From: Candidatus Woesearchaeota archaeon
GTDB taxonomy: Archaea > Nanobdellota > Nanobdellia > Woesearchaeales > UBA11576
Reading direction: 5' to 3'
Assembly (NCBI GenBank): GCA_018668595.1
Contig: JABJCP010000013.1
Span: 64,116-128,115, forward strand
DNA: 64,000 bases
Program-made: the position numbers and the translations under genes
The notes under the pieces: model-generated
The model's input: the letters and a program-made list of their open reading frames with translations, nothing else
Told to the model about the DNA's origin: nothing
The model's database searches: none
Shown here: one piece after another, positions 16,598 through 51,584 of the stretch
Numbering within the stretch: the stretch's first letter is position 1
How the letters are laid out: every line of letters starts with the position of its first letter

Positions 16598-16697
16598 CAA
16601 ATCACCTTTTTTTAACTTAACTATGCTATTAACTAAAATAATTAACCGCAATATCAAAAATAATTAAATGCATTAACTAAAATAATTAAATGCAATA

Positions 16698-17552
16698 TCA
16701 AAAATAGTTAACTGCATTATCAAAAATAGTTAAACAATCTGTAAACTTAGGCATATCAATATCCATTCTAGATCTATACTCTCTATCAAGTGTAAAAAAT
16801 TCATTTTGAACAGAATAAATTGCGCGTTCTGGATGAGGCATTAAACCAAAAAATCTTCCAGAAGGATCACAAATACCTGCAATGTCGTCAAGAGAACCAT
16901 TAGGATTTGCATCACCTATTGCTTTTGAACCATCCTTGTTTATATATTTCAAAACAATTTGATTTGAACTTCTTAATTGCTCCATAATATTTTCGGGAGC
17001 ATAAAATCTCCCTTCACCATGTGCTATAGGCAGGTGAAGTCTACTAATGTTTTTTGTCCAAACACAACCAGTTCCTAATTCTTCAGACTTAACATATTCT
17101 TGATCTTCAGATTCGATATATTCTTGATTATTAGAAAGATAAACCCAAAGATCTCTGTATCTTGCAGATGAATTAAACGTGAGTGCAGTTTTTGAAGTTC
17201 CATAATTTTTATCTCCTATAGGAAAAAAACCAAGATGCGACATAATTTGAAATCCATTACAAATACCAATTGCAAGAGTATCTCGCTCTATGAATTTTTC
17301 TATTTGTTCGCTAAGATTATCTCTAACAATATTTGCATAAGCAAGACCAGAACCCGTATCATCACCCATACTAAAACCACCAGGAAAAACAAGAATGTTA
17401 CAATCATCAATTAAAAATTTATTTTCGATAATATCAGTAATATGAACAATTTGAGTTTTTGCACCGACGAGATCGAAAGCATGAGCTGTTTCGCGCTCGC
17501 AGTTAATACCATAACCGCTCATGATTAAAGTTTTTGGTTTGAATTCGCTCAA
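16698..17552 (-). CDS. purQ: FGAM synthase glutaminase subunit (class I glutamine amidotransferase)
   Basis: Has the GICNGFQ nucleophile elbow and the HPE catalytic pair (MPHPERA). Confidence 0.85.
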   Translation of the reverse strand: MSEFKPKTLIMSGYGINCERETAHAFDLVGAKTQIVHITDIIENKFLIDDCNILVFPGGFSMGDDTGSGLAYANIVRDNLSEQIEKFIERDTLAIGICNGFQIMSHLGFFPIGDKNYGTSKTALTFNSSARYRDLWVYLSNNQEYIESEDQEYVKSEELGTGCVWTKNISRLHLPIAHGEGRFYAPENIMEQLRSSNQIVLKYINKDGSKAIGDANPNGSLDDIAGICDPSGRFFGLMPHPERAIYSVQNEFFTLDREYRSRMDIDMPKFTDCLTIFDNAVNYF

Positions 17553-20649: not shown

Positions 20650-21855
20650 TTAATATCCTTCAAACTCATAGGATTTATTATCTTTTACCAGAATAGTTTT
20701 ATTAACATTACTTGCCAATCCAACATAACCAATTTTCTTTGCTGCTATGTTATATTTTTTTGCAATTTCAAATGCTGCATCTCCATTATCTCTTAACACA
20801 ATTGCAAAACCCATGCCCATGTTAAGTTTTGTAAACGCAGTTTTGACATCGTAATTTGCTTCTTCTTTTACAAGATTATGAATAGGTTTTGGTTCGAACG
20901 GATCTTCAATTATGAATGAGACATCATTTCCGAATCTATTGAAGTTTCTTAAACCATTACCTGTAATATTTACTCCAAAAACAAAATTTGAATTTGCTGC
21001 AATCTCTGCAATCATTCTTGAATAAATTAAAGTTGGTTCTAGCAAAGCTTGACCAATAGTTTGATTTGTATTAGGGACTAAATCACTCAAAGAATATTTT
21101 CCTCTGTACTGAGACTTCCATTCGCTTCTCGGATCAACATTTGGCGTAAGTAATGTGTGTCTTGCCGCAGTGTAACCATTAGAATGCAAACCAGAACTTT
21201 CAAAACCCACAATTATATCTCCCTTTTTAGGAATCCAAAGAGGCATGTCATCTTTTTTTATGAAACCATTCATGCCACAACCAATATCAAAACCATAATG
21301 TGGAACAGGTCCTGTAATCATTTCATCAAGACTTGCAGTTTCGAGTTTACCAAAATTAATAACTTCTGCATCATCAAGAATATCTGAAACATCACATTTT
21401 TTTAGAGCACCTACTATTCCCTTCATTATCTCACCCATCTTGTGCTCTTCAATTTTTGACTGGCAGGCAAAATATAAATTAATTGTATCTGGACAAACTT
21501 TCCCCATAATCGCATAATCATTAGCATTCATTGCAACCAAATCAAAACCAATAGTTTGATAATTGTTCAACCACTGAGCGAGAAAGAGTTTTGTGCCTGC
21601 ACCATCTTCAGTAGTTACTTTATAAGAATCAGGATGAAATCTGCTCTCTGTTAAAACGCAAAAAGAACCTTTAAAACTTTTATGTCTAGAAGTAAGATAA
21701 TTTGGAATTTGTTTTTGACCATCTGAAATAGCAGTATGTTCACGAGATTCATAATCTTCTGCTCTCGGGTTTAAACTACCAACATCACCTTTTGAAGACA
21801 GAGTTACCTCCTTTTCCCCACTACCTCTTTTCTCTTTTGCCCCCACTAAATTCAC
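20650..21855 (-). CDS. purM: AIR synthetase
   Basis: Has the DGAGTKL motif and the AIRS N- and C-domains. Confidence 0.85.
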   Translation of the reverse strand: MNLVGAKEKRGSGEKEVTLSSKGDVGSLNPRAEDYESREHTAISDGQKQIPNYLTSRHKSFKGSFCVLTESRFHPDSYKVTTEDGAGTKLFLAQWLNNYQTIGFDLVAMNANDYAIMGKVCPDTINLYFACQSKIEEHKMGEIMKGIVGALKKCDVSDILDDAEVINFGKLETASLDEMITGPVPHYGFDIGCGMNGFIKKDDMPLWIPKKGDIIVGFESSGLHSNGYTAARHTLLTPNVDPRSEWKSQYRGKYSLSDLVPNTNQTIGQALLEPTLIYSRMIAEIAANSNFVFGVNITGNGLRNFNRFGNDVSFIIEDPFEPKPIHNLVKEEANYDVKTAFTKLNMGMGFAIVLRDNGDAAFEIAKKYNIAAKKIGYVGLASNVNKTILVKDNKSYEFEGY

Positions 21856-22110
21856 CCCATTTAGCCAACTCTTTTTTGTTTTTTTCTTGTTTATAATAAA
21901 ATAATAAAATAAAACAATAAAATAAATTAATAAAATAAATTAATAATTAAAACGTCATCTACAGAACTAGAAATACTATAAATAGTTTGTGTAATTAAAA
22001 TAGCGTGACGAATATTATTAGTTATAAAGATGCTTATGAAATGGATTACTAATTGGTGGTGAGGAAGGAAAAGAATATGCAACACCCTAAATCCAAAATA
22101 CATCAACAAC

Positions 22111-22287
22111 ATTACTGCCTTGGCAAATAAGTTGAACATATAAGTGTTCAATGTTGTTGAGCGTAGCTCAATATTTTCAGTAACGAACAAAGTGAGTTAC
22201 TGAGTTATTGCAGAAAAACACCTGATTCATGCAAGGTGTTTTTCGATATTTAAAATTCATAGAATTTTATAAACTGCCGCAGTAATG
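22111..22287 (-). repeat. copy A of a roughly 178-bp TIR-bounded structured element (MITE-like), reverse orientation
   Basis: Carries the 9-bp terminal inverted repeat CATTACTGC/GCAGTAATG, an internal 11-bp perfect hairpin gaaaaacacct/aggtgtttttc, and the palindrome ttgaacac-ttat-gtgttcaa. It is homologous to copies at 34140 and 51407. Confidence 0.8.
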
Positions 22288-22316: not shown

Positions 22317-22985
22317 TTAAATAATTTGAAAATGATCTTTGTCAATAATATTTAAATGATTTAAAATCGCCTTGATATTTTTAAAAACCAACTGTTTATC
22401 CTTAATCTTAATTTGTAAAATCAAACTGTCTAATCGTTCTACCATTCTAGACATATGTAAAACAAAATTAGGAGGTAAAAAAGTAGAGTTTATCTGAGTG
22501 AAACAAACTAACCTATCTTTGTAAGTTCTAAAAATAAACTCATAATCCTCATAATTATCAAATGCTTTTCGCATAGTTCTATTGTCCATAGCTAAATCGT
22601 CAAACTTATTTAATAATAAATCAAAAAATCTACGATCAGATTCGACTTCAAAAGACTTTTCTTCAAAATATGATTTTCTGTTTTTAAATTTAACGAATTT
22701 CGATATATCAATAAACAAAGAAAAAAAATTTCTATTAAAAGTTGGTTTAAGTTTTTTAAGATATCTTTCTTTAAATGTTATTGCTTCTCGAGTGGTTAAA
22801 TAATTAACAAATAAAATAGTTAAAAAAACACCTAATAGTGAAGACATTATCGATATTGCAAAATTAATTAGCTCAAAAAAATAGCTGCTTGCCAACGCTG
22901 CCAAAACCATAATTATTGCTAAAACAATTATTGCCAGAGAATGATTTTCAATTTCTATGTTTTCCAAAACAAAATTTTTTTTCAT
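22317..22985 (-). CDS. hypothetical membrane protein (2 TM segments at the N-terminus plus a cytoplasmic domain)
   Basis: Hydrophobic N-terminus. No other motif. Confidence 0.35.
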   Translation of the reverse strand: MKKNFVLENIEIENHSLAIIVLAIIMVLAALASSYFFELINFAISIMSSLLGVFLTILFVNYLTTREAITFKERYLKKLKPTFNRNFFSLFIDISKFVKFKNRKSYFEEKSFEVESDRRFFDLLLNKFDDLAMDNRTMRKAFDNYEDYEFIFRTYKDRLVCFTQINSTFLPPNFVLHMSRMVERLDSLILQIKIKDKQLVFKNIKAILNHLNIIDKDHFQII

Positions 22986-23177
22986 GAAATTAAAATAACC
23001 ATTACTTATATTAATTGATTATCCTAACGCTAAAGATACAATCAAATATACTATATTAAATTACACAAGTTATGAAAAAATAAAAATAAATAACACACCA
23101 ACTCACTGTTGTTCGTTAGCTTAATCATCAAGTAAAGCTTGACAGAATTGAAATTGAAAAGTTTGAAACTATAAAAA

Positions 23178-23558
23178 TCAATAATTTTTTATTTCTCGAA
23201 TTAACTTGTTTATTTTATCTATTTTTTTAGTATATAACTCACTTCTTGATTTAATAAATATTTCTAATATTCCCCTCGTGAGGAAAGCTGCGATAATACC
23301 TGGCAAAAAAAGCACTAATAACAAAATTATCACAGTCCAAATATTCTGTAATTCTACTGCATGCAATACCCAACTTCTAATCAAATCATTAATTGAATTT
23401 GCAACGAAACCAGATGTTACTAAAAATGTTGCAATTCCTGCAATAAATGCAAATAAAAACTTATGAATATCTTTATCTTTTTCTAATTCCATTTCAAATT
23501 TTTTTATTTTTAAATCGATAATTTTTTCTGAATAAATTGCTTTTTTATTATCTTTCAT
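23178..23558 (-). CDS. small membrane protein (126 aa)
   Basis: Has 2-3 TM helices and overlaps the upstream gene by 4 nt. Confidence 0.35.
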   Translation of the reverse strand: MKDNKKAIYSEKIIDLKIKKFEMELEKDKDIHKFLFAFIAGIATFLVTSGFVANSINDLIRSWVLHAVELQNIWTVIILLLVLFLPGIIAAFLTRGILEIFIKSRSELYTKKIDKINKLIREIKNY

Positions 23559-24958: not shown

Positions 24959-26569
24959 TCAGAAATCATTTAAACTTTTCTGACCTTTTCGTTTACGCTC
25001 AGGCACTATTATTTTGTCAATGTCTTCTCCAACTTGCTTTTTTATATTAATTGCTACTTTTCTACCAATGAGCTGTGCTAATGTTATTGGTGATGCGCGC
25101 TTAATGTCACCAATATCTTTAATTTTATTTGCAAATAAAATTCTTGCTCTAACTCGACCAATGTTTTTGAGTTTTAGAAGTGCAAGAAGTTCTTCTTTCA
25201 CACCATATTTTAGGCGAAGACGGATTTTAATAATTTCAGTTACAAGGCTATGGAAGCTTAATAATTTTGCAAGCTCTTCTGCACAATACAAAAGCCAATC
25301 GGCACGATCAATTTTCATTCTTGTTTCACCAGGTCGAGTGTTGTAATTTTCTAAGATCACTTCTTCATCTATTTCAGAAATCCAATCCTTCAAAAACAAA
25401 GCAGTTTTTATGGAATTAAGAAATTCATCAAAATCAGACTCAAAATAACTAGGTTCAATTTCAAGCATTTCAGAATCATGCTTTACCCACTGCTCTTGAA
25501 TAATATCATATTCTTTAGCTCTAACTCTTAATAAAGGTCTCATTTCAATAGTATGAGAAACCATTTGAAGAAGACCAAAACTCGTTACGAGTTTATAACT
25601 TGCACCACGCTTAAGACAAGTAATAATATGATGAGCAGTAATTGGATCAATGTATAACTGAGCAATTCTTCGGCCTAAAAGAGTCGCATTAATCTTTTCA
25701 TCGCCTAAATCTTCCGCACTAACAAAATCCTGGTTAGTATTGTATTGAATAAATTCATACTCATCAAGAAGATTAAGAATTTTATCCAGTATATTTTCTA
25801 ATTTAAATAAATCTTGATACTGATGTGCCCAAAAAGTTTTTCCAAAAAATTCCAATAATTGTTTTTTATTACTTACAAACCCTGTAGCAATTAATGAAAG
25901 AACATAAGATCTAAGAACTGGTTCAACTGCAAGCTTTGATAAAACTTCTTCAGGTTCTCCCTTAACATAATTTTCAAAAATCTCTTCTTTATTTTCTTCG
26001 CTTGATGCTATTGCTATTGCTTCACCAGTTGTTTCGAATTTTGGTCTTCCTGCTCTTCCTGCCATTTGCAAATATTCCAAAACAGGAATCCAAGACATTC
26101 CACCCCATCCTTGACCGCTAAAACGTTTGAGATCTTTGATGATGACGCGATATGCAGGAAGGTCAATTCCTAGCGCAAGAGTTGGCGTGCTGCAAATACA
26201 TTTTATCTTACCTTCTCTAAAATTATCTTCAATAATTTCACGTTGTTTATGCATAAGACCTGCATGATGAAAAGCAAGTCCTTTTTTTAAACAATTTGCC
26301 AACCTCTTGCACTGCTTGGTTGGTTTTGGAATTGCAGCTAAGATTTTTTCTGAAAGTTCTTCGAAGAAAAGTGTTTCTTGTTTGTTTAATTTTACTTTTT
26401 TAGAAATATCCTCTGCAGTTTTTTCAGCACCACGCTTAGTTCCAACAAAAGCAATAACTTGCTTATTAATTTTAAAAGAATCCAATGCTAGATTGATTGT
26501 TGCATATTTTGAAGGTTGCTCTATTTTAATTATACGCTCTTGTTGTTTAACCTCTATTTCTGTTGACAT
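24959..26569 (-). CDS. Hel308/Ski2-like helicase, C-terminal portion only (RecA2 + winged helix + ratchet + helix-hairpin-helix); no RecA1/ATP-binding domain
   Basis: Has helicase motifs IV-VI (FHHAGL, STPTLALGIDLPA, QMAGRAGRP) and a C-terminal Hel308 architecture. There is no Walker A or DEAH region. Upstream in-frame sequence hits a stop after 8 codons, and the next gene starts 65 bp away. Confidence 0.7.
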   Translation of the reverse strand: MSTEIEVKQQERIIKIEQPSKYATINLALDSFKINKQVIAFVGTKRGAEKTAEDISKKVKLNKQETLFFEELSEKILAAIPKPTKQCKRLANCLKKGLAFHHAGLMHKQREIIEDNFREGKIKCICSTPTLALGIDLPAYRVIIKDLKRFSGQGWGGMSWIPVLEYLQMAGRAGRPKFETTGEAIAIASSEENKEEIFENYVKGEPEEVLSKLAVEPVLRSYVLSLIATGFVSNKKQLLEFFGKTFWAHQYQDLFKLENILDKILNLLDEYEFIQYNTNQDFVSAEDLGDEKINATLLGRRIAQLYIDPITAHHIITCLKRGASYKLVTSFGLLQMVSHTIEMRPLLRVRAKEYDIIQEQWVKHDSEMLEIEPSYFESDFDEFLNSIKTALFLKDWISEIDEEVILENYNTRPGETRMKIDRADWLLYCAEELAKLLSFHSLVTEIIKIRLRLKYGVKEELLALLKLKNIGRVRARILFANKIKDIGDIKRASPITLAQLIGRKVAINIKKQVGEDIDKIIVPERKRKGQKSLNDF

Positions 26570-26634
26570 TTTTTGAATAACAATTACAAAAAGTTAAGAT
26601 ATATTTAAATATTAACAAATATTGCTTAAAAGAT

Positions 26635-27111
26635 ATGAGACATTCTCTAGAAGTTGGATTTAGTTTTGGATTGACATCTGCAGTTATTACAACACTTGGA
26701 CTCATGATTGGACTGGGTGCTGGAACAAATTCAAAGCTCGTTGTTATTGGAGGAATTATAACAATAGCAATAGCAGATGCTTGCTCAGATGCACTAGGCA
26801 TTCATGTTTCAGAAGAATCAGAAAACATTCACTCTCAGTTAGAAATATGGGAAGCTACAATTGCAACATTTTTATCTAAATTTTTATTTGCACTTACATT
26901 CTTAGTTCCAGTATTGCTCTTAGATTTATTTGCTGCAACAATAGTAAGTATAATTTATGGACTTATACTTCTTGGAGTATTTAGTTATTTTCTTGCAAAA
27001 AAACAAAAACAATCTGTATTGAATGTTGTAGGAGAACACTTAATCACCGCAATACTAGTTATAATCGTAACATACTATGTTGGATTAGGAGTTTCAATTA
27101 TGTTTGGATAA
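26635..27111 (+). CDS. VIT1/CCC1 (DUF125)-like integral membrane protein
   Basis: Has 4-5 TM helices and a Gly-rich first helix with acidic residues, similar to VIT-family transporters. Weak. Confidence 0.4.
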   Translation: MRHSLEVGFSFGLTSAVITTLGLMIGLGAGTNSKLVVIGGIITIAIADACSDALGIHVSEESENIHSQLEIWEATIATFLSKFLFALTFLVPVLLLDLFAATIVSIIYGLILLGVFSYFLAKKQKQSVLNVVGEHLITAILVIIVTYYVGLGVSIMFG

Positions 27112-28761: not shown

Positions 28762-29853
28762 ATGAAACAAAACTATGCTAAATTATTCAAACCTGCAATT
28801 TATGGAGGATTAGTATTTGCAATACTCTCGTCGATTCCAGGATTAAGTTATGTTAATGGACTTTTATTATTCTGGTTAATTATAGGTTGTTTTTTTTCAG
28901 TACATTGCTATCACAAAAAACATGGAGAACATATAACTTATGGAGACTCTATTCATTTAGGAATTTATACAGGAATTTTAGGGGTGCTGTTTACAGTAAT
29001 AATATGGAGTTTACTTGATTTTATTGGTTGGAACTGGACTCCTGTTATGAGACTTTATGGTATTTCCATTTATTCAAGCACGACTATAATTGGAGGAATG
29101 CTAAGCATAGGAGGAATATTTGCAGCAGTTCTTGGAATATTTTATTCTCTTCTTGCAAACTTTTTGCACAGGATTAGTCATGATGTTGATGTGTGGGCTG
29201 CATTTATCTCGTCATTAATAGTTTCTGCAGGAATAATTATATTTACATTAATTGCAAGCTTAGTTTTTAGAATTGTAGGAACTACACATACTGAAGAATT
29301 ATTTCGAACAGCAGTTATAGTCATCTTTTTTGGATTAATGATATTTGGAGGATATATATTTGTTTCATTTTACGATAGATATTCGCAAGCATATTTACAA
29401 AACCAAAAGGAAGGAATAATATTTTCTTTACTTATTTCATTTATTGTTGTTTTTGTTTGGTCCTTATTTACAATCACAGGAAAAATAGGCTGGCACCTAG
29501 TAGGTGTTGAAGATATTGGCGCTATGCTAGTTTTAATTATTGTAATCTCAATTATTTTTTCAATACCTGTTGTGGGAGGATGTTTATATGGAATCTCCAA
29601 ATTAAAACCTAAACATCAATCTAAACAACGAGTTCATGTTATGCTTGAAAATAAAGTTATACAAAAGAAAAAACTAATCAAAAAGAAAACAATTAAGAAG
29701 AATGCTAAAAAGAAAGTAGTTAAGAAAAAGGCTGTAAAGAAAAAAGTTGTTAAAAAGCACAGTATTAAAAAAAATAAAAAGATAATTAAGAAAAATAAAA
29801 AAATTACTAATAAAAAAGTTATTAAAAAGAAGATTACTAAAAAAAAGAGGTGA
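28762..29853 (+). CDS. polytopic membrane protein with a roughly 70-aa C-terminal lysine-rich (VKKK/IKKK) repeat tail
   Basis: About 8 TM helices, then KKKLIKKKTIKKNAKKKVVKKKAVKKKVVKK... which is encoded by degenerate 12-15-nt repeats. Confidence 0.45.
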   Translation: MKQNYAKLFKPAIYGGLVFAILSSIPGLSYVNGLLLFWLIIGCFFSVHCYHKKHGEHITYGDSIHLGIYTGILGVLFTVIIWSLLDFIGWNWTPVMRLYGISIYSSTTIIGGMLSIGGIFAAVLGIFYSLLANFLHRISHDVDVWAAFISSLIVSAGIIIFTLIASLVFRIVGTTHTEELFRTAVIVIFFGLMIFGGYIFVSFYDRYSQAYLQNQKEGIIFSLLISFIVVFVWSLFTITGKIGWHLVGVEDIGAMLVLIIVISIIFSIPVVGGCLYGISKLKPKHQSKQRVHVMLENKVIQKKKLIKKKTIKKNAKKKVVKKKAVKKKVVKKHSIKKNKKIIKKNKKITNKKVIKKKITKKKR

Positions 29854-31052: not shown

Positions 31053-31829
31053 TTAACTTATATTTTTAATTATTCCCCTATAATCAATATCATCTACCTT
31101 TTCGAAAATAGAATCTAGATTTTCACCAGTGTAATCAAACTCAATTTTTTCTCTTAATGATTTTTTTGTATTGAATTCTTTTCTATATTTATCTAATTTA
31201 GGTTGTAATTTTTTTGATTTATTCTTACATATTTTAGGATAAAGCATACTTGCACCAAATGCTACACCCACTGCAGGCATAGCTGCAATTAACATACCAA
31301 GCATAGAATCCCTAATAGCAGGAGTATCTCCCGGCGCTAAAAACGGAGCTACAATCATTACTCCCCCCACTATTAATGCAGGCAAACCAACACTATAAAC
31401 ATTTACTTCACCAGCAGAGTTATATTTTTCAAATTTATAGTTTAATTTATTCACTTTTTTTTCTAAAGAATTAAGTTCAGAATCAGAAACATTTAATTTT
31501 TTATAAACTTGATTTAGAAATGCTTTATTGAATTCAACAGACTTTTTTTCACTAACAGCATATTCAAAAAAAGTAATATACTCATGCATTCTTTGATTTG
31601 ATGTTTTTGTTTTAACTTGTTTGAGTCGTTTTTTTGCATTCTGCTCTTTGAGTTCTTCCATGTCTTTTTCTGCTTGCGCTCTTAATTGCTTTAATTTTTC
31701 TTTATAATTTAAAGTAGAGAATTTAGATTCTGAAGAATCTGTTCTTAGAACGTCACTTAATTCACGAACTTTAATATCCCCTCTTAGTTCTTCTTCCCTT
31801 GATTTTGTTTTAGCATCCATTTTATTCAT
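31053..31829 (-). CDS. hypothetical membrane protein, tandem paralog 1 (coiled-coil N-domain, 2 TM, conserved C-terminal SIFEKVDDIDY)
   Basis: 258 aa. About 55-60% identical to the adjacent gene over its full length. Confidence 0.45.
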   Translation of the reverse strand: MNKMDAKTKSREEELRGDIKVRELSDVLRTDSSESKFSTLNYKEKLKQLRAQAEKDMEELKEQNAKKRLKQVKTKTSNQRMHEYITFFEYAVSEKKSVEFNKAFLNQVYKKLNVSDSELNSLEKKVNKLNYKFEKYNSAGEVNVYSVGLPALIVGGVMIVAPFLAPGDTPAIRDSMLGMLIAAMPAVGVAFGASMLYPKICKNKSKKLQPKLDKYRKEFNTKKSLREKIEFDYTGENLDSIFEKVDDIDYRGIIKNIS

Positions 31830-31890
31830 CTTAATTTAATTTTAATCCAATCTTTATTTAATTTGATTTAATTTTTTTAATTCAATTCTT

Positions 31891-32667
31891 TTAATTTAAT
31901 TCTTTAATTATTTTAGCATAATCAATATCATCTACTTTTTCGAAAATAGATTCTAGGTCTCCTGATTCATAACTTTTTTGAACAGACTCTCTTAATTTCA
32001 ACTTATCTTTATGGTTTGTTTTATACCTGCTATATTTAGGAATTAATTTTCTAACTTTATTTTTACAAATTCTTGGATATAAATTACCTGCGGCAATTCC
32101 CACACCTGCACCAGGTACAAGCCCTAACAACATACCACCTAGAATTTGTTTTCCTAATTCAGATATTTCTGGAGCTAAAAATGCACTTACAACCATAGCA
32201 CCCCCCAGAATAATAGATGGCAAACCAATACTAAATAAATTAACTCCATCTACTGCTTCATATTTTTTAATTTTATAATCTAACTTACTAACTTGTTTGT
32301 CCAATACTTGCAATTCAGAATCAGAAACATTTAATTTTTCATAAATTTGTTCTATAAATAAATCATTGAATTCAACAGATTTTTTTTCGCCAACAGCATA
32401 TTCAAAATAAGTCGCATATTCATGCATTCTTTGATTTGTCGATTTTGTTTTAATACTTTCAATTCTCTTTTGTGCATTTTGATCTTTGAGTTCTTGCATA
32501 TCTCTTTGTGCTTGCTCTCTTAATCGATTTATTCTTTCTTTTGGATCAACAATAGAATCTAACTTAGAACTTTGATCTAAAACGTCACTTAATTCACGAA
32601 CTTTTGTATCTTCTTGTGATCTGATTTTAGATTTTGATTTATCATCTGATTTTACTAAATTACCCAT
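31891..32667 (-). CDS. hypothetical membrane protein, tandem paralog 2
   Basis: 258 aa. Same architecture as the gene at 31053..31829, and the duplicated 3' flank (aatccaatctttattt) is also shared. Confidence 0.45.
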   Translation of the reverse strand: MGNLVKSDDKSKSKIRSQEDTKVRELSDVLDQSSKLDSIVDPKERINRLREQAQRDMQELKDQNAQKRIESIKTKSTNQRMHEYATYFEYAVGEKKSVEFNDLFIEQIYEKLNVSDSELQVLDKQVSKLDYKIKKYEAVDGVNLFSIGLPSIILGGAMVVSAFLAPEISELGKQILGGMLLGLVPGAGVGIAAGNLYPRICKNKVRKLIPKYSRYKTNHKDKLKLRESVQKSYESGDLESIFEKVDDIDYAKIIKELN

Positions 32668-33231: not shown

Positions 33232-33660
33232 TCATAACGCAACATACTTCTCAACAAGTCTAAAACAAGATCCTACTGCCACTGCAATGAATATTGAAAT
33301 TATTAATCTGTTGAGAAAGAATTCTAAACCAAAGTAACCTGTCTCGAGGAAGAATCGTCCAGGACCAATTAAAGTTTGAGCTGTTATAAACGCGACAATA
33401 AGACTAGGAGCAAGACCTTTGTTTTTTAGAACTGTTAAAATGGGAATAAATGCCATTAATGGTCCAGGAGTTGCAATGCCTAAAGCAGATGCTTTGAAAA
33501 TATTTTTTTCATTCTCTTTGAAATGCCCTTCAATATGATTCTTCTTAGTATAATAATTAAGAACTTGAGATACAAAAACAGCAACTAATAAAATTGGAAG
33601 TATTTTAAGAAACGAAATCAATGTTTTAGCCAAGATTTGAATAATAACTTCAGAGGTCAC
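33232..33660 (-). CDS. half-size permease subunit (COG0701/DUF318-like repeat unit)
   Basis: 145 aa with 4 TM helices. Paralogous to the adjacent gene and overlaps it by 4 nt (ATGA). Full-length members of this family are internal two-repeat proteins. Confidence 0.4.
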   Translation of the reverse strand: MTSEVIIQILAKTLISFLKILPILLVAVFVSQVLNYYTKKNHIEGHFKENEKNIFKASALGIATPGPLMAFIPILTVLKNKGLAPSLIVAFITAQTLIGPGRFFLETGYFGLEFFLNRLIISIFIAVAVGSCFRLVEKYVAL

Positions 33661-34094
33661 ATTAATACCTCCATTAAAAATCCACCAATGATAATAAATA
33701 TTGTTGTGATAAAAAATCTAGCAGTGAAAAACTTCCACCCCAAATATTTTATTTCCATAAAATCTCTGATGATTGATTCGCCAATAACCTCTCCTGCGAT
33801 AAGCGCAAAGACAACACCAACACCCGCACCTTTGAGAAATAATGCAAATGCAATAGGATATGTTGCATACCTCGGAATTGGAAGAAGTATTCCTATGATT
33901 GCTGCTAAAGGAATCGCAATAAATAAGTTTTTTCCCAGGAGAAACTCGACTGAAGAACTTGGAACATACATTTCAATAAGTACTCCAAGCAAAACTGCAA
34001 TGAAAAAAATAGGTAGAAGTATTTTAAGACTTTTTAGTGAATTTATTGCTATTGGTTTTAAGTGTTTAAGTTCAAATTGTTTTAGATTTAACAT
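33657..34094 (-). CDS. half-size permease subunit (COG0701/DUF318-like repeat unit)
   Basis: 145 aa with 4 TM helices. Upstream partner of the 33232 gene. Confidence 0.4.
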   Translation of the reverse strand: MLNLKQFELKHLKPIAINSLKSLKILLPIFFIAVLLGVLIEMYVPSSSVEFLLGKNLFIAIPLAAIIGILLPIPRYATYPIAFALFLKGAGVGVVFALIAGEVIGESIIRDFMEIKYLGWKFFTARFFITTIFIIIGGFLMEVLM

Positions 34095-34139
34095 ATTATT
34101 ATCTCAAATGTTTTTTATAAAAAAATAAATTTCTTTGGT

Positions 34140-34316
34140 ATTACTGCGGCAGCTTATGAAATTCTATGAATTTCATATTTCGAAAAACACCTTGCATAAA
34201 TCAGGTGTTTTTCTGCTATAAATCATTGACTCGCTTTGCTCGTCAATGATATAATCGAGCTACGCTCGAATAAATTGAACACTTATGTGTTCAAATAATG
34301 TGCCAAGGCAGTAATG
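34140..34316 (+). repeat. copy B of the roughly 178-bp TIR-bounded structured element (MITE-like)
   Basis: Runs from attactgcggcag to gccaaggcagtaatg and carries the same hairpins as the other copies. The middle stem here is tcattgac/gtcaatga. Confidence 0.8.
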
Positions 34317-46174: not shown

Positions 46175-47077
46175 TCATTGCAGTTTGCACATTGATTCTG
46201 CTCTTTTTAATTTGTAGTAATGAGCCATGTTTAATAGCGCAAAAATAAAATTAACCACAATTACAATATCTAAGATAAGACACCAAATGCAAAGTGACTT
46301 GATTACTGTTAATGAAATGTAAAACAAATAAACCGCACAAACCAATGCAAACAGAGTCATTAACAAATTAAGCCAATGGAAATGAATTCTATTTAAGCAA
46401 CCGCAAATTTTTCCAAGAGGATAATGGTTCCACAATATTTTTGAAGTAATTGCCAACAATAAAAAAAATATTGCTGCAAACATTGCTATAGGTACTCCTA
46501 AAATTAATGCATAACTACTCTGATTTACTGAATTGCAATCAAATAACGGCGTTAAAGAACCAATACAAAATCCTGAATAATATGAATAAGACAAATAAAT
46601 TGAAATAATAAATCCAACCAAACTCAAATAAATTGTGAGCAATAAGTTACTTTTTAACTCTCTTCTTGCCTCGCGCTCATAAGGACTTTTTTTTATTGAT
46701 TCATGAAAATTAATTGCAGGAGGATGTTTAAGATTCACAATCTTCTCTTTTTTTACTGATGAATCTACAATCTTAGGTTTAGAAACAGATCGAACAAGCT
46801 TCTTTTTTACAGGCTTTTTCTTTGCTGTTTTTTTTAGTTGCTTTTTCTTTACAGCATTTTTCTTAACTGGTTTCTTTTTAACTGCCTTCTTTTTAACTGC
46901 AGTTTTCTTAACTACTTTCTTTTTAACTGCCTTTTTTATAACTGATTTTTTCTTTACAGCCTTCTTTTTAACTGCAGTTTTCTTTACAGCATTTTTCTTA
47001 ACTGGTTTCTTTTTAACCGGCTTCTTAGCAGAACTCTTTTGTACCTTCTTTTTTTGAGATTTTTTTTTAGATGCCAT
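46175..47077 (-). CDS. VKOR (vitamin K epoxide reductase)-family membrane protein with an N-terminal lysine-rich (AVKKK)n tail; start set at the internal ATG (MASKKK)
   Basis: Has a loop Cys pair (FCIGSLTPLFDC) and a CIWC redox motif at the start of a TM helix, in a 4-5-TM core. About 120 aa of VKKKAVKKK repeats lie at the N-terminus. The ORF-track N-terminus MLVMSILIVDYLLLL comes from translating the upstream direct repeat. Confidence 0.55.
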   Translation of the reverse strand: MASKKKSQKKKVQKSSAKKPVKKKPVKKNAVKKTAVKKKAVKKKSVIKKAVKKKVVKKTAVKKKAVKKKPVKKNAVKKKQLKKTAKKKPVKKKLVRSVSKPKIVDSSVKKEKIVNLKHPPAINFHESIKKSPYEREARRELKSNLLLTIYLSLVGFIISIYLSYSYYSGFCIGSLTPLFDCNSVNQSSYALILGVPIAMFAAIFFLLLAITSKILWNHYPLGKICGCLNRIHFHWLNLLMTLFALVCAVYLFYISLTVIKSLCIWCLILDIVIVVNFIFALLNMAHYYKLKRAESMCKLQ

Positions 47078-47183
47078 TTTAGTGTAGTTAATATTTAGAA
47101 TATATTTAAGTTTTTCTATAGATGAGAATAGAAGCCAGAAATGATAACATAATAATAATAACAATAATAAGTAATCAACAATT

Positions 47184-47275
47184 AAAATACTCATAACAAG
47201 CAATCAACAATTATCAATCAATCAACAAATAAAATACTCATAACAAGCAATCAACAATTATCAATCAATCAACAA
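47184..47275. repeat. direct repeat, 45-bp unit (aaaatactcataacaagcaatcaacaattatcaatcaatcaacaa), two copies, upstream of the VKOR gene
   Basis: Two identical copies separated by 2 nt. caatcaa microrepeats continue to about 47300. Confidence 0.8.
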
Positions 47276-47278
47276 CAA

Positions 47279-47854
47279 TCAATCAACAATTAACAAGCCA
47301 ACCATATCCTGACAACCTGTTGCACAAAAAACAGGATTATCAAATTCAAAAGAACCGCTTTTATCAACTACAAACTCAAAACGAACAAAACCATCCTTGC
47401 TTACAAATTCATCAATGTCAAATGCTTCTAATGCAAAACCATAACTTCGATCTAAAGCAGAAACAGTCATAACAACATAATCTCCTTTGTCAACGCTGAT
47501 CATGTCAGGAATAAAAGTGTAATTAAATATATTAATTGAAATTGCCTTCTTATTTTTTTGAGATACAGGCTTTGCTGGTTGATAAGATTTTTTTACATTA
47601 CTTGAATCCACTTCAAGAATCTTTTCACCCTTTTCACTTAACGATTCGACCAATATATCCACGCTATCTGCTGATTTCTTTGAAGGTAATTCAAAAGACT
47701 CAGGATCAAATTTTCCTTGATCTAAATTGTTAAAATCTAGATTATCAGAACCTTGATCAGCACAAGAAGATAACAATAAACAACAAATCAACAAAATAGA
47801 AATTAGCAAAAAAGAAAAATTAAAAGTTGAAAAAAACAATTTATTAAAATTCAT
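47279..47854 (-). CDS. secreted lipoprotein with a cupredoxin-like C-terminal domain
   Basis: Signal peptide and lipobox (LLSSC). The C-terminus has FIPDMISVDKGDYVVMTV...FCATGCQDMVGLLIV, which resembles a cupredoxin/EfeO-type fold. Canonical Cu ligands are not all evident. Confidence 0.35.
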   Translation of the reverse strand: MNFNKLFFSTFNFSFLLISILLICCLLLSSCADQGSDNLDFNNLDQGKFDPESFELPSKKSADSVDILVESLSEKGEKILEVDSSNVKKSYQPAKPVSQKNKKAISINIFNYTFIPDMISVDKGDYVVMTVSALDRSYGFALEAFDIDEFVSKDGFVRFEFVVDKSGSFEFDNPVFCATGCQDMVGLLIVD

Positions 47855-51347: not shown

Positions 51348-51406
51348 TTTTTATTTTTTGTAATTTATTTATTGTTTTTTGTTTATAGTTGTTTATTATT
51401 TTTTGC

Positions 51407-51584
51407 ATTACTGCGGCAGTTCATCAAATTCTATGAATTTGATCAATCGAAAAACACCTTGCATGAATCAGGCGTTTTTCTGCATTACTTCAGCTTCTCG
51501 TTTCTCTCGTAGCTGAATTCATCAAAGCAAAGCTTTGAACTAATTAAACTTTGTAAGTTCAAATAACTTGCTAAGGCAGTAATG
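51407..51584 (+). repeat. copy C of the roughly 178-bp TIR-bounded structured element (MITE-like), lying between the ABC ATPase and permease genes
   Basis: Runs from cattactgcggcag to ctaaggcagtaatg. Has the same 11-bp hairpin core (one mismatch). The middle stem here is cagct/agctg and the third stem is ttgaact/agttcaa. Confidence 0.8.

Follow-up and report, generated by a model that had tools for sequence, protein, structure and literature searches.

REP/BIME, ERIC, the Correia elements of Neisseria, and BOX and RUP of Streptococcus pneumoniae are hairpin repeats located between genes, often after stop codons. Such repeats are co-transcribed and, in either orientation, act as stabilisers of mRNA 3' ends, as processing sites or as terminators; BOX is modular. 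The mobilising enzymes are RAYT for REP and IS-type transposases for Correia. Among miniature transposons (MITEs), archaeal examples are SM1-SM4 from Sulfolobus and the MITEs of halophiles. Elements derived from IS200/IS605 have no terminal inverted repeat (TIR), and insert 3' of a fixed target of 4-5 nt. The attC sites of integrons are single imperfect hairpins, 57-141 nt long, featuring GTTRRRY core sites and organized in tandem cassette arrays next to the integrase. Finally, the canonical bulge-helix-bulge (BHB) substrate is composed of two 3-nt bulges, on opposite strands and exactly 4 bp apart, each located 3' of the central helix on its own strand.

The repeat described here was found in a stretch of 64,000 nucleotides, indicated as the window, with a G+C content of about 30%. 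It is a dispersed, non-coding and lineage-specific sequence of about 178 bp, from uncultured marine Woesearchaeota (DPANN). Its host is represented in marine metagenomes by contigs, one of 233 kb among them, and by MAGs GCA_018659545.1 and GCA_018671815.1; genes for purine and histidine biosynthesis and for an archaeal helicase of Hel308 type are found within the window. When compared with the systems listed above, the repeat resembles integron attC sites in having hairpins conserved in structure and variable in sequence, located directly past stop codons. An attC identity was rejected, as the repeat features five hairpins, different ends and no array: copies within the window are 12-17 kb apart, among genes for purine, histidine and glycolysis functions. 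IS200/IS605-derived PATEs and the ends of TnpB omega-RNAs share with the repeat the absence of a target-site duplication and the importance of subterminal hairpins, and are common in archaea. The repeat, in contrast, features a 9-bp TIR, and the bases found at its 5' flank (TTCA, TTGG, TTTG, TTCG and AAAA) are not conserved, a different tetranucleotide being present for each copy; on these grounds a PATE of this origin was also rejected.

Copies of the repeat and their genomic localization

The localization of all copies is reported in Table 1, along with that of the structural parts of copy B. The three copies of about 178 bp listed by the first-pass annotation were all recovered, with coordinates differing by no more than 1 nt, and copy A is, as had been indicated, inverted relative to B and C. 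The same three intervals are paired by a repeat finder. The 32-nt core hairpin is present exactly three times in the window, when up to one mismatch is allowed, about zero occurrences being expected by chance; the 12-nt right end, AAGGCAGTAATG, is also found exactly three times, against a chance expectation of 0.37. When scored by a covariance model, true copies range from 169 to 211 bits, and all other sequences reach at most 35 bits.

Table 1. Localization of repeat copies and of the structural parts of copy B. Positions are those of the window, unless a contig is indicated; "P" labels refer to the stems of the predicted fold.
Feature	Location	Strand	Description
Copy A	22110-22287	-	intact, 178 nt; covariance model 202.6 bits
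Copy B	34139/34140-34316	+	intact, 178 nt; covariance model 210.6 bits
Copy C	51406-51584	+	intact, 179 nt; covariance model 182.4 bits
Copy D (fourth copy; L063)	L096:13019-13192		intact; metagenome-contig scan with an 18-mer
Fifth copy	L079:1406-1636		intact, 231 nt including an insert; metagenome-contig scan with an 18-mer
Probable decayed sixth copy	~23000-23184	+	partial covariance-model match and alignment
Copy B, P1 5' arm (TIR)	34139-34147	+	pairs with 34308-34316; 100% paired, invariant
Copy B, P1b 5' arm, 4 bp	34148-34151	+	pairs with 34301-34304; 100% paired, invariant
Copy B, hairpin P2	34155-34177	+	core AAATTC-TAT-GAATTT invariant, outer pairs covary
Copy B, hairpin P3	34182-34213	+	GAAAAACACCT-N10-AGGTGTTTTTC; invariant except for one mismatch in copy C
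Copy B, hairpin P4	34222-34250	+	variable stem; 6 of 11 pairs with two-sided changes
Copy B, hairpin P5	34255-34269	+	stem GAGC/GCTC
Copy B, hairpin P6	34275-34294	+	stem TTGAACAC/GTGTTCAA
Copy B, P1b 3' arm (TGCC), AAG bulge and 3' TIR (GCAGTAATG)	34301-34316	+	

Scanning of metagenome contigs with the 18-mer returned 40 loci, two of which are true further copies. Copy D adjoins an 849-aa protein, 100% identical to one found on the 233-kb contig of the window, which makes it the fourth copy of this genome, located on this same contig about 45 kb beyond the right end of the window; the 10 kb beyond each window end contain no further copy. The fifth copy was found in another contig of the sample which provided copy D. 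Further copies, with the same boundaries, are thus present elsewhere in the same genome, in agreement with the originally proposed TIR-bounded structured element. Four intact copies are contained in the roughly 105 kb sampled from the host; this corresponds to a density of about one copy per 25 kb of sampled sequence, any genomic copy number being an extrapolation.

Intact copies are 174-179 nt long. The fifth copy reaches 231 nt because of a 53-nt insert (L079:1465-1517), located within the loop of hairpin P3 and itself composed of two hairpins, which folds at -18.7 kcal/mol and starts by repeating ACCTTGCA, a sequence of the P3 arm and loop. The insert was considered as a second mobile element and rejected as such, since no other copy of it is found in the sequence examined.

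The five intact copies and the relic are located at unrelated intergenic sites, in both orientations. They have no coding capacity: most frames are interrupted by stop codons, and the copies do not share a conserved open frame. The intergenic contexts initially assigned to the three window copies are correct. Copy A is located 29 nt past the stop of a 222-aa membrane-protein gene (22317-22985, - strand) and 254 nt before an AIR-synthase-like gene (20650-21855, - strand). Copy B lies 8 nt past the stop of the pyruvate kinase gene (34325) and 44 nt ahead of the start (34094) of an ArsP half-permease gene, one of a pair; copy C is found 13 nt from the stop of an ABC ATPase gene (51598) and 58 nt from the start of an ABC-2 permease gene (51347). 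Copies B and C are both antisense to the genes on their two sides. For the five intact copies, the distance from the stop of the upstream, co-directional gene is 8, 10, 13, 18 or 29 nt, the next start codon is found 38-254 nt beyond the element, and in five out of five the stop is nearer than the start. Relative to neighbouring genes, copy A is in sense orientation and the other four intact copies are antisense.

A probable decayed copy is found in the gap between a 126-aa gene and the 222-aa gene next to copy A, where the covariance model matches positions 23089-23167, with 20.9 bits and an E value of 0.0035 in 208 kb. Recognisable features are the CATTACT of the left end, P4-P6 and, in degenerate form (AAAATCAATAATT), the right end; P2 and P3 are eroded and P4 pairs are broken. 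This relic and copy A, inverted relative to each other, are found on the two sides of the 222-aa gene, as in a composite unit. A TATA-like TTATATTAA is present in the eroded left part of the relic, about 26 nt upstream of the start codon of the 222-aa gene. The gene was also considered as a transposase gene, and rejected: its product features two N-terminal hydrophobic, transmembrane helices and has no match to transposase or nuclease families.

Anatomy and predicted folding

When the five copies are aligned, every intact copy ends exactly at CATTACTGC...GCAGTAATG, while the flanks are unrelated. The ends form a perfect TIR of 9 bp, CATTACTGC/GCAGTAATG, followed, after a 3-nt offset, by 4 further base pairs, GGCA/TGCC. 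A 9-bp TIR common to the three window copies had been described; this generally applies, except for copy B, where the first base is T instead of C, so that 8 bp and a U-G pair are formed.

The predicted fold starts with the 9-bp closing stem, followed by an invariant 3-nt bulge (AAG), by the 4-bp helix and by a multiloop, from which five hairpins, P2 to P6, depart. The same five-hairpin architecture is found in all copies, on both strands. For copy B, the minimum free energy is -65.1 and -67.3 kcal/mol on the two strands (z = -9.7 and -9.0), and 58 of the 59 pairs of the model are Watson-Crick.

The hairpins differ in their degree of conservation. The 11-bp hairpin, P3, described as perfect and identical in all window copies, is so in A and B; in copy C it contains one A-C mismatch (AGGCG). 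On both strands, five T followed by a C are found at the end of the P3 3' arm, a type of signal where archaeal RNA polymerase terminates. The motif CTC..TT...T.GT, in the apical loop of P4, is conserved between copies. The stem of P5 is GAGC/GCTC in copies A and B, AAGC/GCTT in copies C and D, AAGT/ACTT in the fifth copy, and that of P6 differs, in the other copies, from the sequence found at the same place in copy B. Stems reported as variable and still self-complementary were correctly identified, being tcattgac/gtcaatga in B, cagtaac/gttactg in A and cagct/agctg in C. The 8-bp palindrome ttgaacac/gtgttcaa, which had been assigned to all three, is exact in B only: copy A features 7 bp and copy C ttgaact/agttcaa, at the same place. 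The invariant stems, namely P1, the core of P2 and P3, are self-complementary and have the same reading in either transcript.

Covariation and uneven conservation

Compensatory changes in the stems, noticed from the three window copies, were evaluated on an alignment of five sequences. Two-sided changes are present in 12 of the 59 pairs, a count which, resting on five sequences, is not R-scape-grade, against 5.8±1.6 in column shuffles, where none of 500 reaches 12; displacing the partners by 1-3 columns leaves 0-3 two-sided pairs. Compensation is therefore above both types of control, which supports the first reading. Standard pairs account for 89.5% of pair cells in this alignment, and paired cells make up 89.5-91% overall. 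A model-fitted alignment provides the same covariation numbers, and 8 two-sided pairs are reported by RNAalifold alone.

P4, P5, P6 and the outer portion of P2 are where two-sided, pair-preserving changes are located, the near-invariant parts being the terminal stem, the core of P2, P3 and the loop of P4. Identity between copies is about 91% in the left block (P1, P1b, P2, P3 and TCTGC; 78 nt) and 95% at the right end. The P4-P6 interior, with an identity of 62.5%, is still about 85% paired, and pairs are lost in the decayed copy; because of this, the hairpins are probably held by selection, and not by chance. The pairing itself appears to be maintained between copies, the evidence in the alignment being good, if not final. 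Whole copies are 74-85% identical; a best pair of 85%, set against the 91% or so of the left block, would be easier to understand if each locus were constrained than if the copies were junk of recent transposition, and the combination of conserved loops and covarying stems also suggests a constraint acting locus by locus, rather than mere transposon debris.

An identity of 74-85%, in copies all fixed in the population, is also what could be expected from the remnants of a duplicated intergenic segment, decaying in the absence of mobility and of structural constraint. Similarity, however, stops exactly at the inverted-repeat ends, with unrelated flanks on either side; copies are found in both orientations, pairing is far above that of shuffled and slid controls, and the alternation of conserved and variable blocks is not produced by neutral decay. 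Sharp boundaries and covariation refute this explanation, which is left with practically no probability, as had already been argued from the sequence of the three window copies.

The distribution of invariant sequences may be read in a different way, since they coincide exactly with the self-complementary ones: the P1 arms, AAATTC-N3-GAATTT and GAAAAACACCT-N10-AGGTGTTTTTC. Such palindromes could be binding sites for dimeric proteins, or cruciform sites, in a cassette working at the DNA level in chromosome organisation or regulation, whose function would by nature be independent of orientation, in line with the mixed orientation of the copies and with the lack of an RNA strand signal. Binding to double-stranded DNA would nevertheless leave the paired, two-sided changes of P4-P6 unexplained; moreover, no candidate binding protein was found, and the element is absent from the about 97 kb of relatives analyzed. 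We regard a DNA-level cassette as quite unlikely.

Strand signals and candidate RNA functions

Covarying stems, along with the conserved loop of P4 and conserved single-stranded stretches, are the classic signature of a functional RNA; folds are very stable, and conserved blocks persist in spite of an interior showing about 62% identity. All this would suit a family of paralogous, independently transcribed sRNA genes, composed of a conserved, protein-binding left domain and of variable hairpins, in which the likeness to MITEs would be incidental. On the other hand, no promoter-like motif is found at a fixed distance on either flank of the five copies. G-U pairs number 7 and A-C mismatches 10, a balance which favours neither strand; the two strands fold equally well, and orientation relative to neighbours is mixed. 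A scan for promoter and terminator consensus sequences was of little use, the consensus being bacterial and the host archaeal. The absence of Rfam matches and of copies in relatives, reported in the next section, and the existence of a decayed copy also speak against such genes, which we consider improbable, if less so than the DNA-level cassette. C/D-box and H/ACA readings were rejected on sequence.

The base of the fold is reminiscent of archaeal BHB introns and processing stems, as it features an invariant helix, a 3-nt bulge and a 4-bp helix. A relaxed BHB motif on the + RNA, consisting of the 9-bp helix, the AAG bulge, the GGCA/UGCC helix and a junction of 2-4 nt before P2, might be cut by the archaeal splicing endonuclease; cleavage would release, and possibly circularise, the five-hairpin core, making the repeat an intron-like mobile RNA. 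Helix, bulge and 4-bp helix are invariant in five out of five copies and, in the + RNA, the bulges have the canonical placement, each on the 3' side of the central helix in its own strand. The second bulge, however, is not a defined 3-nt one: it is a strand of the multiloop, whose length varies from 2 to 4 nt depending on a G15-U217 pair, possible in four copies. Unlike BHB introns, the repeat is not located inside tRNA, rRNA or coding sequences, and most copies (4 out of 5) are antisense to the surrounding genes, whose transcripts therefore carry the wrong strand. The resemblance may be due to chance, and an intron-like nature is considered very remote.

A functional structured RNA spreading like a transposon may also be envisaged; its boldest form, in which the splicing endonuclease excises the five-hairpin core and RtcB circularises it, is a long shot. 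Should the core indeed be excised, the repeat would be a mobile "intergenic intron", or a circular RNA, with conserved loops binding factors of the host or of a partner cell.

Searches in other genomes

In the window, no match to Rfam 15 is found at gathering score, and at E<=10 only chance-level matches of 25 bits or less are obtained. The two termini, used as a pattern across genome contigs, gave no match. A pattern for the P3 hairpin found 43 loci in 185,579 species genomes, all in unrelated bacteria and none in archaea; these were rejected as generic terminator-like hairpins, matching P3 only, with covariance-model scores not above 34.5 bits. No exact-pattern match is present in viral contigs, and no blastn match in phage and plasmid records. 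About 97 kb of sequence from five related Woesearchaeota do not contain any covariance-model match at E<=10. At the protein level, a concatenation of 2423 aa, composed of translations of the element and of edge proteins, had no scoring match in the database searched. A literature search produced no paper linking Woesearchaeota with this repeat.

Evidence on mobility

According to a census of prokaryotic MITEs (PMC11602168), a Woesearchaea genome is among the MITE-densest archaea. The same census gives MITE criteria as a length of 50-800 bp and TIRs usually of at least about 10-15 bp (PMC11602168). The size of the repeat and its lack of coding sequences are in agreement with this definition; its perfect TIR, of 9 bp, is below the usual length.

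Target-site duplications at the ends, which the first-pass annotation indicated as something to look for, are not present: in the five copies none is found for offsets from -4 to +4 and lengths from 2 to 10, the only feature of this kind being a palindromic AT inside the TIR. No other unit with ATTACTGC/GCAGTAAT ends, and none enclosing a transposase, is found in the window or in contigs L096, L063 and L079, a search extending over about 105 kb of host sequence. Two strict MITE features, a target duplication and a known partner, are thus lacking in the sequence sampled.

A DDE_Tnp_1 (IS4/IS5-type) transposase gene, encoding 383 aa, is present near copy D (L096:6441-7592), again on the 233-kb contig which contains the window. 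It does not feature recognisable terminal inverted repeats, is fixed in all population contigs and was rejected as the partner transposase, as it shares no termini with the repeat. Small HTH genes are found next to it, with TTTCGTCC-type repeats just upstream of them.

The gap between the ABC ATPase and permease genes, where copy C is located, is 250 bp long here and 77 bp, without the element, in the closest relative found (L095), a comparison between organisms whose pyruvate kinases are 60% identical and which are too distant for this site to be aligned. At the sites of copies A-D no empty allele, and therefore no sign of recent mobility, was found in up to 10 population contigs per site: 28 out of 28 full contigs, from samples of several oceans, carry identical copies. 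Three Logan short-read contigs (L126, L129 and L103) stop at model position 49, within the invariant block. Breaks of this kind are expected when a repeat has multiple copies, and assemblies of the host organism are therefore fragmented by it.

Other features of the window and its surroundings

A number of additional features were observed. The ORF for the Hel308-type helicase (24959-26801, 536 aa) matches family models of 700-740 residues from about position 215 only, and the N-terminal DEAD domain is therefore missing; an 84-aa ORF overlaps its start, and the gene may be split or truncated. The ArsP_1 predicted permease next to copy B is encoded by two adjacent half-size genes (33232-34094; 142 and 145 aa), each matching the first 134 of the 294 positions of the family model. 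At 31053-32667 two tandem, paralogous 258-aa genes are found, with about 75% DNA identity and similar upstream regions.

Repeats of other types are also present. A lysine-rich coding repeat, with a 15-nt period and about 13 units of AAGAAA-type codons, is located at 46803-47041, within an ORF (46175-47203) for which the population contigs show a VKOR domain; a similar lysine-rich stretch is found on the other strand, at 29681-29801. Two short tandem arrays (16628-16737 and 47144-47298) lie in or beside intergenic regions: one, with a 22-nt period and about 5 units, is found where two ORFs meet; the other, upstream of the VKOR-domain gene, consists of a AATCAACAA-rich, 47-nt direct repeat (a 98% identical pair). 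Just past the right end of the window (L105:1253-9104), about 15 small, co-directional genes without Pfam matches form a run, which may be an integrated mobile element or a provirus.

Discussion

The explanation we put first, with middling confidence, is that of a non-autonomous mobile repeat, whose hairpins are selected, and which probably serves, or is tolerated, as a structured 3'-end or terminator module, working independently of orientation. Miniature-transposon (MITE-like) spread is the most likely origin of the family. In its favour are the sharp ends, the unrelated sites occupied in both orientations, the existence of a relic, the contig breaks, the shorter gap without the element in the closest relative, and the contrast between four intact copies in about 105 kb of the host and none in about 97 kb of five relatives; the missing target duplication and transposase, the short TIR, the identical occupancy of sites in the population and the conservation of the left block count against it. 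The element would have been mobilised in trans, by an enzyme recognising the conserved ends and the left-hand hairpins, and selection would keep the hairpins intact. Because every copy is located 8-29 nt behind a stop codon, and the self-complementary stems are the same on either strand, the element most likely falls in the 3' untranslated part of the transcript of the upstream gene. Here, in either orientation, it could provide a stable multi-hairpin 3' end and, after P3, an oligo-U stop signal for the archaeal RNA polymerase, available on both strands. A role at the transcript level, as suggested by position and folding, would follow from such an arrangement.

Should the copies indeed act as 3'-end or terminator modules, they would offer a handle on the formation of transcript ends in organisms that cannot be cultured. 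DPANN genomes are tiny and streamlined, and yet this hairpin-rich repeat is retained. Fragmentation of assemblies by the repeat also matters for the binning of the lineage. If the repeat is only a MITE, it adds one more family to a catalogue already counting thousands.

Prokaryotic MITEs are similar to the repeat in their small size, in being non-coding, in the presence of TIRs, in the dispersal of intergenic copies in both orientations and in their restriction to a lineage; the breaking of short-read assemblies inside the repeat is a further point of likeness. The repeat differs from them in that neither a target-site duplication nor a cognate transposase was found in the sequence analyzed, and in its perfect TIR being 9 bp long. 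Its interior, moreover, is organized as five distinct hairpins, whose stems covary and whose loops are conserved, and does not correspond to an insertion sequence simply shortened by deletion.

REP/BIME, ERIC, Correia, BOX and RUP share with the repeat the ability to form hairpins and an intergenic localization, often just past stop codons. They differ from it in sequence, no similarity being present, in host, which here is an archaeon, and in structure, where a multiloop with five hairpins takes the place of one long hairpin. Taken together, these features fit the broad class of MITE-like structured intergenic repeats, within which the family, if its members work as 3'-end or terminator modules, would be an archaeal counterpart of the bacterial REP, ERIC and Correia elements.
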